Shown here: piece by piece, positions 6,782-42,179 of the stretch
How positions within the stretch are numbered: position 1 is the first letter of the stretch
How the letters are laid out: every line of letters starts with the position of its first letter
From: Escherichia phage EC147
DNA: 46,060 nt
Reading direction: 5' to 3' (one strand)
Sequence record: ON185589.1
Made by a program: the position numbers and the translations under genes
The notes under the pieces: model-generated
Seen by the model: only the letters and a program-made list of their open reading frames with translations
What the model was told of the DNA's origin: nothing
The model's database searches: none

Positions 6782-6799
6782 CACAAAATTATGTTGCAC

Positions 6800-6820
6800 G
6801 TTTAACAAAAAATGCTATCA
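6800..6820 (-). promoter_or_regulatory. copy of conserved 21-bp element, reverse orientation, without a good -10
   Basis: GTTTAACAAAAAATGCTATCA on plus strand (revcomp TGATAGCATTTTTTGTTAAAC); on minus strand followed by CATAAT after only 6 nt instead of 18. Confidence 0.35.
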
Positions 6821-10534: not shown

Positions 10535-10579
10535 ATGATACACGATTCATAATCAATTCTTTTAACAAAAAGTGCTGTT
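10535..10579 (-). promoter_or_regulatory. copy of conserved 21-bp element with -10-like TATCAT, antisense to tail genes
   Basis: minus-strand reading AACAGCACTTTTTGTTAAAAG + 18 nt + TATCAT; sits between terminator and tail chaperone RBS. Confidence 0.35.
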
Positions 10580-22766: not shown

Positions 22767-22794
22767 ACAGCACAAATAGCTAAACAAATGAAAA

Positions 22795-22847: not shown

Positions 22848-23135
22848 ATGGAAAACAAACAAGTGTCAAAGGTAGCAGTTCATATCAACAATTTTGCAAC
22901 TGGCATGGCTATGTTGCTTCGTGACTTTGTAGAGCCACTTGATCCAACAGCAGGCGAAGAAGAAATGGAGTACATCAGAAAAGTAATAGATGCAGTCGAT
23001 AACGTCGTGCTCATTGCGACAATGAGTGAAGACAACGAGGAAGCAATCAAGGCGGTAAAAGAAAGTTCTGATCGCATGATGGAAAATCTTATTAAATTAC
23101 ACACTAAAGAAGAAACAAAACACCAACAGCAATAA
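22848..23135 (+). CDS. hypothetical acidic protein
   Basis: 95 aa, RBS AAGGA; about 19 acidic vs 11 basic residues; between exonuclease and Erf. Confidence 0.5.
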   Translation: MENKQVSKVAVHINNFATGMAMLLRDFVEPLDPTAGEEEMEYIRKVIDAVDNVVLIATMSEDNEEAIKAVKESSDRMMENLIKLHTKEETKHQQQ

Positions 23136-26954: not shown

Positions 26955-27887
26955 TTAGAGAATAGATTCAGGTTTGAAAACCTTCCTCTCTATCCCTTGT
27001 CTGTAATTATCATTAATCGGCATCATAATTTCAAGTCCTCTTTCCTCGGCAGCAATGATCGCGTCACGATCTGTGCTCTTACAGACAACTCGCATTCTTC
27101 TGTTGCCTTTATACCTGTAAGCCACAATCTCAATGTTAGTTGCATCAAAACAGGCCCAAACCTCCTGACCAGTTGCAAGATGAATATGTTGCGCATCAAT
27201 CCAGTCAACGCAAAGATAGATAGTCTTATCTGTACTTCCGGTTCTAACAATCGACCCTCGCGTGTAGTCCTTTGCTAGAAAAGACTGTTTACCTTCTTCA
27301 TCAATGAAAAGCACATTGCACATTTCATCATCAATATCATCTGAATGCACAAGGTAACATGATAACGCGTGAATGTATCGACCATCTTTTACGCCGCAAT
27401 CATAATGACCATCTTCAGGCGGGCATATTCCTTCATATGTGCTTAACGGCGTGCGATCAAATTTTAGTGTTTTTGACATAACGCGCTCGCAGCATTCATG
27501 GCTTGCCTGTTTCCCAAACGAATAACCAGAATCACGAGATACTCGCTTATTTGCCTTGATTCTATAGCCCTGCGGAACTTTTCCAAGAAAGCGGCCCAAA
27601 ATATTGATCACTTCGCTGTAAGGTTCTCCGGTTAGCTTCATGATCCAACCTATTCCAGTATCGTTTCCGCACACGTTGCAGATCGCACCGCCATCGCCTT
27701 TTTTATCTCCAAGTTTATCCGTCCATCTAAAGCGATCCTTTCCGCCGCAGTGGGGGCAAGATTGATGCTTGCCGTTAAAAACTTCATTTGGAAGACCGCA
27801 AATACTTTGTAGCGCCTCACGCCATAATCCCTGCATATATGGGAGAACATCTTCCTTTTGATAAACCATAAAGTTTTCGTTGTTCAT
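26955..27887 (-). CDS. DNA primase (zinc-ribbon + Toprim-like)
   Basis: ATG at 27887 after GAGGTG; zinc ribbon CPHCGGKDRFRW..CNVCG typical of phage primase Zn-binding domains; 310 aa. Confidence 0.65.
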   Translation of the reverse strand: MNNENFMVYQKEDVLPYMQGLWREALQSICGLPNEVFNGKHQSCPHCGGKDRFRWTDKLGDKKGDGGAICNVCGNDTGIGWIMKLTGEPYSEVINILGRFLGKVPQGYRIKANKRVSRDSGYSFGKQASHECCERVMSKTLKFDRTPLSTYEGICPPEDGHYDCGVKDGRYIHALSCYLVHSDDIDDEMCNVLFIDEEGKQSFLAKDYTRGSIVRTGSTDKTIYLCVDWIDAQHIHLATGQEVWACFDATNIEIVAYRYKGNRRMRVVCKSTDRDAIIAAEERGLEIMMPINDNYRQGIERKVFKPESIL

Positions 27888-27942
27888 ATGCACCTCAAAC
27901 AAAAAAGCCTGACAGATGATAACATCATGCCAGGCATTGTTT

Positions 27943-28416
27943 TTAGCAATTAGTGCTTTCAGGTTTATACAGGAATCCGCCAGGTTCATAATCTGACATT
28001 CTTACCACTCGCAACATTTCACGCTTATCACATCTCTTTGTGAGCGGTTTTCCATTGGAATCAAATCGCAGATCTGGACGGCAGAATGAAGCGCGATAGC
28101 CTTGACAGTCATACTTTTTGTAATCGTTATGCACCTTTTGAGCACCAGCGGCTGAAATCATACCACGAACGCGCCACTGATTTACAGTTTGCTGGCTAAC
28201 GTTAAGACGTTTTGCCATTGCTGACACACTTCCGTAATACTCAATAAGGATTTCAAGTCGCGCTTTTAGTCCGGCTCGCACTTCATCTTTTAAAACATAG
28301 TATCCTGTAGGGCGCTTGCGCTTCTTCTTATCCTTGCCTCGTCTTGTTCCGTTATTGCCATTAATTGTGCGCTTGTCAATCTTGCCTGTTGATGCTGCAA
28401 TTCGTTGCTCTTTCAT
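27943..28416 (-). CDS. putative HTH DNA-binding regulator
   Basis: 157 aa; basic N-terminus (KDKKKRKRP) and helix-turn-helix-like VSAMAKRLNVSQQTVNQWRVRG; diverges from the helicase promoter. Confidence 0.55.
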   Translation of the reverse strand: MKEQRIAASTGKIDKRTINGNNGTRRGKDKKKRKRPTGYYVLKDEVRAGLKARLEILIEYYGSVSAMAKRLNVSQQTVNQWRVRGMISAAGAQKVHNDYKKYDCQGYRASFCRPDLRFDSNGKPLTKRCDKREMLRVVRMSDYEPGGFLYKPESTNC

Positions 28417-28428
28417 TATTCATTCTCC

Positions 28429-28472
28429 AATAGCATTTTTTGTTAAACGATGATTTAATGATTGTGTATTAT
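28429..28472 (+). promoter_or_regulatory. conserved element + N18 + TATTAT (helicase promoter)
   Basis: AATAGCATTTTTTGTTAAAC (28429-48), 18 nt, TATTAT (28467-72). Confidence 0.55.
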
Positions 28473-28476
28473 ACAC
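28464..28476. promoter_or_regulatory. perfect 13-bp palindrome overlapping both divergent -10 elements (candidate operator)
   Basis: GTGTAT-T-ATACAC; overlaps TATTAT of the plus promoter and TATAAT of the minus promoter. Confidence 0.5.
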
Positions 28477-28495
28477 GCCAAATGGCATTACTCAA
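28468..28495 (-). promoter_or_regulatory. sigma70-like promoter for the HTH regulator gene
   Basis: minus-strand TTGAGT, 16-nt spacer, TATAAT. Confidence 0.45.
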
Positions 28496-28505
28496 AGGTT
28501 TTAGA

Positions 28506-30551
28506 ATGATTCCAAACATTGAAAAGCAAATATCAGCACTTGGTGAAGCGGTAATTAAATCCATTCAGGAGAGATTCACTGTTGGCGATATTGTGCCTTA
28601 CCCTTACCAGTGCGTTGCATACGCTGAGATCGCAAAGCGTATGAAAAATTATGATCATCCATTCTTTGTTAAAGCGTCCGTATCGGCTGGCAAAACATTG
28701 ATGTTTGCAATGGTTGCTCACCAGTGCCGGAAAATGGGCTTGAAAATGATGGTCCTTGCTCGCCAGGCTGAGATTGTGGATCAGGATTCTGAAGAGATAA
28801 CAAATCTTGGTGTGCCGAACTCCATCTATTGTGCAGGACTGAAGACAAAAAGAGCATACTTTCCGATCGTTGTTGGTTCTGAGGGAACTGTAGTTAATGG
28901 ACTGTTTAAAGCGCTTGGCGACTATGTTCCGCACGTTATCGGGATTGACGAGTGTCACCAGGTGGATTGGGAAGACCTTGCCGACGCAATAGAGAAAGAC
29001 GAATCATTTTTACAAATGACGACGAAGAAAGGCGAAAAAGTACCAAATCCAGATTATGACATAACAAAGGGAAGCAGGAACAGAAATACAGAGTTCCTGA
29101 TTGGTGATGATGGCTTGCCAATGGAGGGAACAGGACGCACACAATACACTGTCATTATTATGGAAATGATGCGCCGTTGCCGGAAAACATATGGTCATGA
29201 ACTACGCATATTTGGCATGACTGGATCAGAGTTTCGCGGTGTAGTGCCAATACTGGTAGAAGATAAAAAGCAAAAAGGATTCTGGCGTGAGCAGGTTACT
29301 AATATTGACACCAACTACCTGATCAAGTTCGGATCTGTTGTTCCGACTAATTTTGGCGACGTTGGCGATCTCGGGTATGACCTTTCAGAGTTTGAGGCAT
29401 CAAGTGAGGATGGAGTTGCAGACTTTGACGCTAAAACGCTTCGCAGGATGGAACAAAAAATTCATGAAGAAGCGACCATGACAAAGCGCATCATGGCGAA
29501 AGTTCACGAGATCTGTAAAAACCGCAATGGCGTACTTGTGACATGTGCAGGAGAAAGGCATTGCAAAGAGGCAGCGGCAGCGTTGCCACCTGGAACTACT
29601 TACAGGATCATTACTGGTAAGACTGGCGATAACCAGCGCAAGGAGTGGTTGAAAGAAGCATACGAGGGAAAGGTTAAATACATCTTCCAGGTGCAGGCGC
29701 TAACTACTGGCGTTAACGTGCCGTTTTGGGATACGTCTGTTATTCTGCGTAAGATTGGATCTCTTACGTTGCTGATTCAGCTTTTAGGTCGCGGAATGCG
29801 ACTACTTAAGAAGTGGCATAAGGAGCAAGGATTCCAGAAGGATGATCATCTAGTCATGGATTTTTCAGGAACGATGGACGAGCTAGGGGAGCTTTATTTT
29901 GATCCGATACTGGAACAGGCGCAGCATCAGAAGCGATTCAGAAATGGTAAAGATCCGAAGCCTTGCCCTATTTGCGGAACTCTTAATAGCTATTATGCTC
30001 GTCGTTGTATGCACGTAGACGAAAACGGCAACAGATGCGAATGGTTCTTTAAATTCAGGACATGTGATGATCAGATTGACCCGCGCACTAAAAAGATTAT
30101 TCAGCGCGGTTGTGGAACGAAAAATGATATTGCGGCCAGGGTATGCAGACATTGTGACATGTCATTGATTGACCCCAACGAGAAGTTAAGCGGAAAGCAC
30201 TACACAAAAAACGACTGGTTCCAGGTGCAATCTTTCGCGGTTGATATGACGAAAAACCAGAAAGGGATAATATTTAATTATGAGCTTTCCGATGGCATAG
30301 ACACTTTCAGGGCGAGAGAGATATTTTTCCCTGAATCTGAGAGCCAAATTTGCCGCGCAAAATGGCGAAGCGTTGCTCTTAAGCACATACCGGATCGCCG
30401 TGTCGCTGGTATGGTGGCGAGCTATCGCAATGCGCGTAAAATCATGCAATATGTGAATCACATCATGCCGCCATCGCGTGTGACTCACCGCAAGACTAGC
30501 AAGGGCGAAGATAATTTGTACAAGAAGGAATTTAATTATGGCAATGACTGA
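28506..30551 (+). CDS. superfamily 2 DNA helicase
   Basis: Walker A SVSAGKT and DExH box GIDECHQ; ORF track start 28440 is TTG inside the promoter element; ATG 28506 has AAAGG 7 nt upstream; 681 aa. Confidence 0.8.
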   Translation: MIPNIEKQISALGEAVIKSIQERFTVGDIVPYPYQCVAYAEIAKRMKNYDHPFFVKASVSAGKTLMFAMVAHQCRKMGLKMMVLARQAEIVDQDSEEITNLGVPNSIYCAGLKTKRAYFPIVVGSEGTVVNGLFKALGDYVPHVIGIDECHQVDWEDLADAIEKDESFLQMTTKKGEKVPNPDYDITKGSRNRNTEFLIGDDGLPMEGTGRTQYTVIIMEMMRRCRKTYGHELRIFGMTGSEFRGVVPILVEDKKQKGFWREQVTNIDTNYLIKFGSVVPTNFGDVGDLGYDLSEFEASSEDGVADFDAKTLRRMEQKIHEEATMTKRIMAKVHEICKNRNGVLVTCAGERHCKEAAAALPPGTTYRIITGKTGDNQRKEWLKEAYEGKVKYIFQVQALTTGVNVPFWDTSVILRKIGSLTLLIQLLGRGMRLLKKWHKEQGFQKDDHLVMDFSGTMDELGELYFDPILEQAQHQKRFRNGKDPKPCPICGTLNSYYARRCMHVDENGNRCEWFFKFRTCDDQIDPRTKKIIQRGCGTKNDIAARVCRHCDMSLIDPNEKLSGKHYTKNDWFQVQSFAVDMTKNQKGIIFNYELSDGIDTFRAREIFFPESESQICRAKWRSVALKHIPDRRVAGMVASYRNARKIMQYVNHIMPPSRVTHRKTSKGEDNLYKKEFNYGND

Positions 30552-30957: not shown

Positions 30958-30997
30958 CACTTTTTGTTAAAACAGGCGCGAAGGATTGCGCCATAAT
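30953..30997 (+). promoter_or_regulatory. conserved element + N18 + CATAAT (dam promoter)
   Basis: AATAGCACTTTTTGTTAAAAC (30953-73) overlapping the VRR-NUC stop TAG; CATAAT at 30992-97. Confidence 0.55.
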
Positions 30998-31995: not shown

Positions 31996-32038
31996 TAGCA
32001 CTTTTTGTTAAAACGCCAGACCTTGTGTCGGGCATAAT
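31994..32038 (+). promoter_or_regulatory. conserved element + N18 + CATAAT
   Basis: AATAGCACTTTTTGTTAAAAC (31994-32014) starting inside the stop codon of the upstream gene; CATAAT 32033-38. Confidence 0.55.
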
Positions 32039-32568: not shown

Positions 32569-32580
32569 GGAGAATTTTTG

Positions 32581-33696
32581 ATGAAGCAAATCAAAATCAC
32601 AGATGAACAATTTATCAATGAGCGCAAGCAGGGAAAGACATATAAGCAGATCGCTAGTGAGTATGGCATGAACGTTCGCAGCATTGAGCGACGCGCGGCA
32701 CGATTAGCAAAGCAAGGTAAAGTTACAACCATCGGATCACCTGGTTTTGGTGTTACTGGAGAATCAAAGCTAATTGATAAAGATGGCAATGTGGTTATGA
32801 TATGGATTAAGACAAGCAAAGACCGCGAACAGTTAGAAGCATTAATGCAGGCCGCTATGGATGCATTTAGCGAAGAGGTTCCTCGACTTGATCCACAGAC
32901 AGAATCACAAAAGGATTATAGCGAGACGCTATCACTGTATCCGATCTTTGACATGCACTTGGGCGCAATGGCGCATAAGCATGAATGCGGCGAGAATTGG
33001 GATACAGCAACAGCAGAGCGCGTAATGAATAATTTCATTGATTATTCCATCCAGTGTGCGCCGGATAGTGAAAAAGCTGTTTTGCTGATTGGTGGTGATA
33101 TGCTTCACAGCGACGGACTGGAAGCGGTGACACCTGCAAGCGGTCACGTATTGGATCAAGATAGTAGATATGCAAAACTTGTTTATGTTGCCATCCGGTC
33201 AGTGCGTCGAGCAATTACAAAGCTGTTATCAAAACACAAAAACGTCGAGATTCAGATCATTGAAGGCAACCACGACCAAAGCGGCATGATCTGGTTGCGC
33301 GCAGCAATGGCGGCAGCATATGAGAATGAGCCACGAGTGCATGTTGATGTGTCTCCGCGAGTGGTTCATCACACACAATATGGCAAAACGTTCCTGGCAT
33401 ACCATCACGGGCATACTATCCGCAAACCTGAAACATTGCTAATGATGTGCGCGGCAGACTGGCGCGAAGACTTCGGCAATTCAAAAATGATGTATGCTCA
33501 CGTAGGGCACTGGCATCATCAAACAGTAACTGAAACAAGCCTGGGAATTGTTGAAGTGCATAGCACTATGGCGGCAAAAGATGCATATGCTGCGCGCGGT
33601 GGATGGCGTTCTCGTCGCCGTGCGGCTGTTATTGTTTATGATAAAGAATACGGAGAAGTAGGGCGATTTATGCATTATCCAGAAATGGCTGGTTGA
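32581..33696 (+). CDS. calcineurin-like metallophosphoesterase with N-terminal HTH-like region
   Basis: motifs DMH, GGDMLHSDG, EGNHD, HHGH, GHWHH; N-terminal KTYKQIASEYGMNVRSIERRAARL; ATG 32581 after AGGAG. Confidence 0.65.
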   Translation: MKQIKITDEQFINERKQGKTYKQIASEYGMNVRSIERRAARLAKQGKVTTIGSPGFGVTGESKLIDKDGNVVMIWIKTSKDREQLEALMQAAMDAFSEEVPRLDPQTESQKDYSETLSLYPIFDMHLGAMAHKHECGENWDTATAERVMNNFIDYSIQCAPDSEKAVLLIGGDMLHSDGLEAVTPASGHVLDQDSRYAKLVYVAIRSVRRAITKLLSKHKNVEIQIIEGNHDQSGMIWLRAAMAAAYENEPRVHVDVSPRVVHHTQYGKTFLAYHHGHTIRKPETLLMMCAADWREDFGNSKMMYAHVGHWHHQTVTETSLGIVEVHSTMAAKDAYAARGGWRSRRRAAVIVYDKEYGEVGRFMHYPEMAG

Positions 33697-35180: not shown

Positions 35181-35216
35181 GGTAACTTCCTTTTGTTGTT
35201 TCGTTTCGATGAAACA

Positions 35217-35261
35217 AATATACCCGATACGAGATCGGGAGTTTTAACAAAAAGTGCTATT
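35217..35261 (-). promoter_or_regulatory. conserved element + N18 + TATATT
   Basis: minus-strand AATAGCACTTTTTGTTAAAAC + 18 nt (contains GATC) + TATATT. Confidence 0.55.
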
Positions 35262-38819: not shown

Positions 38820-39011
38820 TCAAAACGGAAAGCATCGCGGGCAGTTAGGATCAAAATTGCAGCCGCAATCATTGACAATCATAGTTGGATCTGCAAATGC
38901 AGCGCCGCATTCATGATCCATATCCATTTCACCCAACGCATCATCAAGCGTCCTGATCTTATATGCAACTTCAAGCGCTGCCTCTTTATTTAATCCGGCA
39001 TCTTCAGCCAT
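38820..39011 (-). CDS. small Cys-rich protein (possible zinc-binding)
   Basis: 63 aa; HECG..DCGCNFDPNCPRC; stop lies 7 nt before the start of the methyltransferase-like gene. Confidence 0.45.
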   Translation of the reverse strand: MAEDAGLNKEAALEVAYKIRTLDDALGEMDMDHECGAAFADPTMIVNDCGCNFDPNCPRCFPF

Positions 39012-39885: not shown

Positions 39886-40124
39886 TAGATTTTCTCCAAA
39901 TTCTCGATCTTGTTATTGCCAATTGAAGAATGAACGCAACGCTCTTGCGTCTCCTTGTTGCCATGAACATCAATATAATACCCTGGTATAACAGTAAAAA
40001 ACCAATTGCCACGCCAGAAGAAATAAAGGCCGTGCTTGCTTCCTTTCGCGCATTTATTCGCATTTTTAGGTATTGGAAGTCCGTGGACTCGCCGCAATTC
40101 TACATTCTTGTTAAAATTTGGCAT
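39885..40124 (-). CDS. hypothetical protein
   Basis: 79 aa, RBS GGAGG; Trp/Phe-rich. Confidence 0.45.
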   Translation of the reverse strand: MPNFNKNVELRRVHGLPIPKNANKCAKGSKHGLYFFWRGNWFFTVIPGYYIDVHGNKETQERCVHSSIGNNKIENLEKI

Positions 40125-41715: not shown

Positions 41716-41760
41716 AATAGCACTTTTTGTTAAAACGCCAGGCGCAAAACCTGGCATAAT
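41716..41760 (+). promoter_or_regulatory. conserved element + N18 + CATAAT
   Basis: AATAGCACTTTTTGTTAAAAC + GCCAGGCGCAAAACCTGG + CATAAT. Confidence 0.55.
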
Positions 41761-41792
41761 AGCCTCATCGAAACGAGATTGAGGAAACAAAA

Positions 41793-41978: not shown

Positions 41979-41993
41979 TTAGCAGGTGAATAA

Positions 41994-42179
41994 ATGAAAA
42001 CGAAATTAGTCCATAAATCAGAAATCAAGATCGGCGATACTGTGATTCACAACGGCGAGCTTAGAACGGTTGGCAAAGAGTCAATAAGCAAAGATGAATT
42101 TATGGGGATCTTGTTGTTCGGTGACTCTTATCGTCTTGGTTATAAAATGGTTGAGCTTGTGGAAGAGGTAAAATTCTAA
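41994..42179 (+). CDS. hypothetical protein
   Basis: 61 aa, RBS AGGTGA. Confidence 0.45.
   Translation: MKTKLVHKSEIKIGDTVIHNGELRTVGKESISKDEFMGILLFGDSYRLGYKMVELVEEVKF

Follow-up and report, generated by a model that had tools for sequence, protein, structure and literature searches.

Escherichia phage EC147 (sequence record ON185589.1) carries a regulator gene and a helicase gene that diverge from a gap of 89 bp, which raises the question of how transcription is started in both directions from this DNA and whether the regulator itself decides between them. A preliminary description proposed that the gap holds face-to-face divergent promoters sharing a perfect 13-bp palindrome and that one dimeric regulator bound there could control both genes. 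We examined the gap in the window, by which we mean the whole stretch of 46,060 nucleotides analyzed here, and in related phages.

EC147 is a T1-like siphophage of the Drexlerviridae and is ~97% identical to Shigella phage pSf-1 (genus Hanrivervirus). In addition, 19 GenBank ‘Campylobacter phage’ records (host C. jejuni) match the EC147 locus, with ~97% identity among the matches listed; these records probably either name the wrong host or stem from contaminating phages. The gap (28417–28505) is bounded by the minus-strand regulator gene on its left and by the plus-strand helicase gene, the first gene of a rightward replication operon, on its right (Table 1). The central domain of the regulator has an all-alpha Cro fold, and no other DNA-binding protein present family-wide is annotated as a transcription factor. 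Its family is restricted to T1-like phages. Residues 1–38 contain a near-invariant basic motif, DKRTxNGNNGTRRGKDKKxRKRP, that is predicted by the model to be disordered, and residues 100–145 form a C-terminal domain that was modeled confidently, without a match in the PDB. A second possible DNA-binding regulator from the same operon region is a 372-residue protein (32578–33696, plus strand), which combines an N-terminal HTH_28 domain (a weak match) with an apparent metallophosphoesterase-like domain and is annotated in relatives as a DNA repair exonuclease or phosphoesterase. In T1, a terminator is annotated at the position equivalent to 27901–27935 in EC147, after the regulator gene, and the presence of a terminator 3′ of this gene suggests that the regulator is largely its own transcription unit.

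Table 1 Features of the regulator–helicase gap and its flanks in EC147 (window positions).
Feature	Position	Strand	Remarks
Intrinsic terminator, hairpin + U6	27901–27935	–	just 3′ of the regulator gene; RNA fold –20 kcal/mol, z = –3.1
Regulator gene	27943–28416	–	157 aa; ortholog of T1 gene 23
Regulator domains			disordered basic N-terminus; Cro-like helix-turn-helix, ~residues 44–101; conserved C-terminal domain of unknown fold
Regulator Shine–Dalgarno, GGAG	28425–28428	–	adjoins the 21-bp element in all lineages examined
21-bp conserved element	28429–28449	+	20-mer at 28430–28449, ATAGCATTTTTTGTTAAACG; marbox-like, forward relative to the helicase promoter
Regulator transcription start (predicted)	28459–28462	–	inferred from the –10 position; ~18–19 bp from the predicted helicase start
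13-bp perfect palindrome, GTGTAT-T-ATACAC (GTGTATTATACAC)	28464–28476		centered on the shared –10 region
Helicase promoter –10, TATTAT	28467–28472	+	17 nt downstream of the marbox-like 20-mer
Regulator promoter –10, TATAAT	28468–28473	–	5 bp in common with the helicase –10; together TATTATA (TAnnnTA)
Helicase transcription start (predicted), CA	28479–28480	+	inferred; 7–8 nt past the –10 hexamer
Regulator promoter –35, TTGAGT	28490–28495	–	16-nt spacer; adjoins the helicase Shine–Dalgarno
Helicase Shine–Dalgarno, AAAGG	28494–28498	+	ATG at 28506
Helicase gene (superfamily 2)	28506–30551	+	Pfam ResIII + Helicase_C; helicase annotation in relatives

The two promoters of the preliminary description were located as stated: TATTAT on the plus strand and TATAAT on the minus strand overlap within the palindrome, and TTGAGT lies upstream of the minus-strand hexamer at the distance claimed. 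With 10 of 12 matches, TTGAGT-16-TATAAT is the best sigma-70-like site between 27700 and 28900, and a scan of 20 kb on both strands returned only seven sites with at least ten matches. As a class, sigma-70-like matches in the same 20 kb were no commoner than in shuffles (35 versus 40.2), as might be expected if the minus-strand match were fortuitous and either the regulator were transcribed from elsewhere or the helicase promoter alone were real. Two lines of evidence make this reading highly improbable. First, all genes for more than 6 kb rightward of the gap lie on the plus strand, with neither a minus-strand gene nor a minus-strand promoter site there, and the regulator therefore requires a promoter within the gap. 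Second, the minus-strand promoter is kept by the family. We retrieved the corresponding gap of 15 Drexlerviridae in GenBank and of 80 contigs in IMG/VR, which comprise 22 distinct lineages, and used as controls 44 promoters of the same type as the helicase promoter, from four genomes, that have no divergent gene. The opposite-strand promoter scored 8–11 of 12 in the 22 lineages (mean 9.5), far stronger than in the controls (mean 6.45; Mann–Whitney p = 8e-11). The minus-strand –35 varies by lineage (TTGAGT, TTGACT, TTGAAT, TTGTCA, TTAACA, TTGTCT and others), whereas its spacing of 16–17 nt is retained, and turnover of sequence at a fixed position is a signature of functional selection. Within the window, the helicase promoter is also the only one of 14 promoters of its type to have a strong opposite-strand partner (10/12), with the rest reaching 9 at most.

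The –10 hexamers of the two promoters are paired as TAnnnTA (offset 0) in 20 of the 22 lineages. In the bidirectional promoters characterized by Warman et al., opposite-strand –10 hexamers overlap in just this way, with positions 2 and 6 base-paired, and the divergent starts lie 7–25 bp apart, most often 18 bp. TATTATA in the EC147 gap has the same architecture. The predicted helicase start agrees with the control promoters, in which C is found at –1 in 32 of 44 and A at +1 in 37 of 44, 7 nt past the –10 hexamer. Upstream of the shared hexamers, the minus arm has its family-conserved –35 at 16 nt and the plus arm has the 21-bp element, and divergent genes flank the gap. It is very likely that the gap is one bidirectional promoter. 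In a convergent pair, the transcripts would overlap by tens of bases, whereas here one –10 region is shared and the predicted 5′ overlap is ~18 nt. Thus, the earlier claim of two overlapping, opposed promoters stands, with conservation across the family now added, but the term ‘face-to-face’ does not, because a single shared –10 region is described more accurately as a bidirectional promoter.

The palindrome is indeed perfect over 13 bp, and a reading in which it serves as an operator, with a dimer of the Cro-like regulator covering both –10 hexamers and repressing its own gene together with the helicase operon, has obvious attractions. Relatives with a Cro fold bind dyad-symmetric operators as dimers, the gene for such a protein adjoins the palindrome, and the perfectly symmetric site lies exactly over both –10 hexamers. 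The distribution of the palindrome argues otherwise. The window has 14 palindromes of odd length whose arms reach 6 or more, versus 11.8 ± 3.4 in shuffles, so the 13-bp palindrome is no statistical anomaly; of the window's 31 palindromic TAnnnTA heptamers, 3 extend to such arms. Across the family, arms of length 6, and hence the full 13 bp, are confined to Hanrivervirus. Webervirus has arms of length 5, as do three further lineages, including one whose flanks differ; most lineages have arms of 3–4 and several have arms of 0–2. In genera other than Hanrivervirus, therefore, only the 7-bp TAnnnTA core or 9–11 bp of symmetry is found, with flanks that sometimes differ, although the regulator itself is 48–100% identical across the Drexlerviridae. 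Nor do the flanks covary with the recognition helix of the regulator. For example, VSQQTVNQW is paired with ttgtgTATTATAcacgc and VSQQVVNQW with gagtcTATTATAtactc, and one 11-bp core, TGTATTATACA, is accompanied by four different recognition helices. No second copy of the palindrome was found in the EC147 genome at up to two mismatches.

The overlap of two –10 hexamers is by itself sufficient to produce the 7-bp symmetric core, as in the promoters of Warman et al. Given a palindrome that is limited to one genus, shows no covariation with the recognition helix and is in no excess over shuffles, the operator reading is unsupported, and we do not favor the proposal that one regulator dimer at the palindrome controls both genes; we judge such control to be unlikely. 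The palindrome is quite probably a by-product of the overlapping –10 boxes, not a repressor site. Some symmetry is left over, however. Arms of at least 5, and thus palindromes of at least 11 bp, recur in ~5 lineages (Hanrivervirus, Webervirus and three others), which is somewhat above chance expectation. The base preferences of this promoter type explain the flanks only in part, because G at –13 is found in 28 of the 44 control promoters but few of them (5 of 44) have T at –14, leaving a small excess of dyad symmetry. There may accordingly be some selection for symmetry and hence an operator, and the Cro-like helix-turn-helix of the regulator makes its binding to the palindrome possible. A LexA box was considered and rejected, as CTGT-N8-ACAG needs 16 bp whereas TGT-N5-ACA is present here, with the wrong spacing.

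The helicase arm differs from the regulator arm in having no usable –35: hexamers at 16–19 nt from its –10 match TTGACA at only 2–3 of 6 positions. It has instead the 21-bp element, which the preliminary description had placed in the 5′ untranslated region of the regulator transcript. That placement holds if the regulator start is near 28460, but the element is not merely untranslated leader and is most likely the upstream activator site of the helicase promoter, corresponding to a class II marbox. The window contains 13 copies of the element at up to three mismatches, versus 0.01 expected, and a 14th, more divergent copy at 6799. Each of these 14 copies is followed by a –10 hexamer at 17–18 nt and then by a leader, a Shine–Dalgarno sequence and an ATG, from which it follows that the helicase promoter belongs to a repeated promoter family, being one of ~14–17 copies in the window. 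The spacing of 17–18 nt from element to –10 is also found in the promoters of T1, Klebsiella phage TSK1 and Pantoea phage AAS23.

The marbox is the E. coli site bound by MarA, SoxS and Rob, with the consensus gcannwwntgnnaaa, and in class II promoters it lies in forward orientation over the –35 region. The helicase element matches gcannwwntgnnaaa exactly and agrees with AYNGCACNNWNNRYYAAAYN at 14 of 15 specified positions (one mismatch); this copy has GCAT instead of GCAC. Exact matches to gcannwwntgnnaaa number 17 in EC147, 20 in T1, 14 in TSK1 and 12 in AAS23, as compared with 0.3–0.6 in shuffles and none in the T7 genome, and sites with at most one mismatch to AYNGCACNNWNNRYYAAAYN number 9–21 per genome versus fewer than one in shuffles. 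Fifty-two copies of the element were also gathered by a profile that does not impose the marbox consensus. Among these, G4, C5 and A6 are present in 52 of 52 and G13 and A17 in 51 of 52, and the element varies most at the positions that the marbox leaves free or degenerate (8–10, 14, 19 and 20). The register also corresponds. A site 17–18 nt before the –10 hexamer, combined with C(–1)A(+1) 7 nt past it, puts the G of GCAC at –47; on the predicted starts, GCAC spans –47 to –44 in forward orientation and the site is centered at ~–41. Class II sites for SoxS and RamA are centered at ~–41 as well, and in the structure of Rob with RNA polymerase and micF DNA, Rob contacts the G at –47 and the A at –45. 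On balance, we favor recognition of the element by a host marbox-binding protein.

Several other identities for the element were tried and rejected. As a sigma-70 –35, it offers TTGTTA at 21–22 nt from the –10 and a weak TTAAAA at 19 nt. As a sigma-54 promoter, TAGCAC-N-TTG lacks the invariant GG and has the wrong spacing to TTGC. Matches to an UP element or to IHF or Fis sites were poor by eye, and an extended –10 was dismissed for having TG at –14/–13 instead of –15/–14.

A different possibility is that a phage factor reads the element, with the regulator as the obvious candidate and the likeness to the marbox being coincidental or a case of mimicry. Such a factor might be a class II activator centered near –42, in the manner of lambda cI at PRM, or a repressor of the ‘stoperator’ type. 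The element includes a partial dyad, TAGCA-N5-TG(C/T)TA, centered at ~–42, and it is conserved beyond what a marbox needs, with A at position 3 and TT at positions 11–12 near-fixed. The regulator, as the sole annotated transcription factor of the family that binds DNA, has a promoter of host type and could appear first and activate the element promoters in turn; moreover, stoperator and enhancer-binding readings were suggested in work on phage TLS (PMC11447400). Nevertheless, we consider it unlikely that a phage factor takes the place of a host activator. The left half of the dyad, TAGCA, is fixed, whereas the mirror positions 14–15 are free (TT, CT, CC, CA, GT, AC and AT all occur), an asymmetry that a symmetric dimer would not tolerate, that led us to reject a symmetric operator TAGCA-N5-TGCTA and that fits a monomer with two different helix-turn-helix motifs. 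In addition, the conserved positions are the two recognition elements of the marbox, in marbox spacing and register, and the element promoters precede the presumed earliest small genes and would have to fire before any phage protein is made.

We also looked for a MarA-like protein of phage origin. phmmer searches of all six-frame ORFs of EC147 and T1 with MarA, SoxS and Rob queries gave nothing significant (best hit, E ~0.01, 12.5 bits), and Pfam scans of 20 early ORFs revealed no AraC-family domain. In the literature that we searched, no link between Drexlerviridae or T1-like phages and the marbox, MarA or SoxS was found, and searches for T1-family transcriptomes, start-site maps or the element sequence led only to the TLS repeat description. 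Reading the 21-nt repeat of the Drexlerviridae as a class II marbox thus appears to be new.

Other copies of the element have features of their own. Two more matches to the marbox consensus lie on the plus strand of the late region (2544–2563 and 22767–22786), one ahead of the portal gene and the other ahead of an ORF at 22848, and some late operons may therefore share this promoter type. Two copies on the minus strand oppose late structural genes, one before the major capsid gene (6799–6819) and one after the major tail gene (10559–10579). Both are kept in T1 (15069 and 18833, minus strand), and their possible roles are as sources of antisense RNA or as roadblocks. Many element promoters contain a G+C-rich inverted repeat, either in the 18-nt spacer between element and –10 or flanking the –10 (in EC147, 30974–30992, 32015–32033, 35223–35239 and 41737–41755; in T1, 38973–39001, 39998–40024 and 41980–42007). 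The T1 GenBank record annotates these hairpins as rho-independent terminators, so that terminator and promoter seem to be fused in one module. A related arrangement is seen beyond the regulator gene (27888–27963, minus strand), where the terminator hairpin separates the end of the regulator reading frame from the ATG at 27887, probably the true start of primase, a marbox-like site, GAAAGCACTAATTGCTAAAAA, adjoins the terminator and a TATCAT hexamer lies within the hairpin loop; in T1, the corresponding position likewise has an element together with an annotated terminator. Finally, most element promoters are followed by C(–1)A(+1) and a leader resembling AUCGAAACGA before the Shine–Dalgarno sequence (for example, 41762–41785 and 35195–35215).

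What we observed are the sequence features, how they are conserved and a marbox match that extends to both sequence and register; from these we infer transcription starts, activator binding, polymerase competition and the action of the regulator as follows. RNA polymerase would occupy the shared TATTATA in one orientation or the other and never in both together. Leftward, TTGAGT-16-TATAAT could act as a self-sufficient sigma-70 promoter, giving an mRNA for the Cro-like regulator whose leader contains the complement of the element and which would end at the terminator after the gene. Rightward, where a usable –35 is lacking, the class II marbox would present GCA(C) at ~–47 to –44 and TAAA at ~–36 to –33, and a host activator of the MarA/SoxS/Rob type (RamA in Klebsiella) would recruit polymerase to the helicase arm. 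The most likely activator would be Rob, which is favored for its constitutive, high-level expression. As both arms use the same TATTATA, stronger activation of the helicase arm should increasingly keep polymerase off the regulator arm, as happens at PacrA/acrR. The palindrome, finally, would for the most part reflect two –10 hexamers whose flanks match and would not be an operator in its own right. Taken as a whole, this combination of a bidirectional promoter with a marbox-activated helicase arm is an explanation that we hold to be somewhat better than even.

The supply of activator bears on this model. MarA and SoxS are scarce in unstressed cells, and T1-like phages grow well in ordinary broth. 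Rob, for all its abundance, is reported to stay mostly sequestered and inactive unless inducers are present. Either basal activity of these proteins suffices, then, or another factor is involved. Because the element is conserved beyond the need of a marbox, a further factor might act on it as well, perhaps one that the phage encodes, with the regulator as a conceivable candidate.

More broadly, there is about an even chance that the Drexlerviridae run most of their non-structural transcription from class II marbox promoters, borrowing host MarA, SoxS, Rob or RamA in place of a –35, and that host input sets the direction of the regulator–helicase promoter. There are several implications if this proves true. 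First, bile salts, salicylate, oxidants or the availability of Rob would tune expression of the replication operon against that of the Cro-like regulator. Second, phage expression would be tied to regulators of multidrug resistance, which would be relevant to phage–antibiotic combinations and to behavior in the gut. The T1-like phages are common among coliphages and Klebsiella phages, are notorious for contaminating laboratories and are often put forward for phage therapy. Finally, the gap would be a conserved viral bidirectional promoter in which an activator-dependent arm is set against a constitutive one that serves a regulator gene. The marbox reading of the 21-nt repeat, which is directly testable, holds the greatest interest.

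Among known systems, the PR/PRM region of lambdoid phages resembles the EC147 gap in having a Cro-fold gene beside divergent promoters and dyad-symmetric sequence that overlaps promoter hexamers. In contrast, lambda has three related operators and back-to-back promoters with no shared –10, whereas EC147 has a single palindrome with non-conserved flanks and one –10 region. The pR and pL promoters of phage 186 form a face-to-face convergent pair that acts by transcriptional interference.

The 21-bp element of EC147 is the same element as a 21-nt direct repeat, aaATAGCACnnnTTGnTAAAA, reported in 2024 for phage TLS, in which 21 copies are oriented with transcription, and present also in T1, Rtp and Rogue1 (PMC11447400). 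The TLS authors suggested a stoperator, an enhancer site or a UP-like role and did not tie the repeat to the marbox, to a –10 at fixed distance or to a divergent regulator promoter; their re-annotation recognizes only three sigma-70-like promoters (PMC11447400). In its layout, the EC147 helicase promoter is much like the class II promoter of micF, which responds to Rob, SoxS and RamA and whose forward 20-bp site, comprising GCAC (A site) and (C/T)AAA (B site), overlaps a poor –35 (PMC9178005, PMC9638938, PMC8811837). The two agree in the center of the site (~–41), in the A-site G and A (–47 and –45) and in a good –10 hexamer. By contrast, micF is a single host gene, whereas each phage has 12–20 such predicted promoters, which are much more alike than host marboxes are.

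The closest known analog is the E. coli PacrA/acrR promoter, at which SoxS uses a marbox to turn on acrA; the divergent regulator gene is thereby silenced through competition for polymerase alone and not by a roadblock (PMC12825309; 10.1101/2020.01.31.928960). Like the EC147 gap, PacrA/acrR has a shared, pseudo-symmetric –10 region, from which it yields divergent mRNAs, as the gap is predicted to do. One of its arms is activated by SoxS or MarA through a marbox, where the EC147 helicase arm has its marbox-like site, and the other arm serves a DNA-binding regulator gene that is shut off by polymerase competition, an outcome predicted for EC147. There are also differences. The acrA site has been described as class I for RamA (~–71.5), whereas that of EC147 is class II and overlaps the –35 region. 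AcrR is a TetR-family repressor of both arms, whereas the EC147 regulator is Cro-like. Moreover, PacrA/acrR belongs to E. coli, whereas the predicted EC147 promoter comes from a lytic phage and is shared by a whole virus family. With these qualifications, the EC147 gap appears to be a viral case of a known kind, a bidirectional promoter with one activator-dependent arm.
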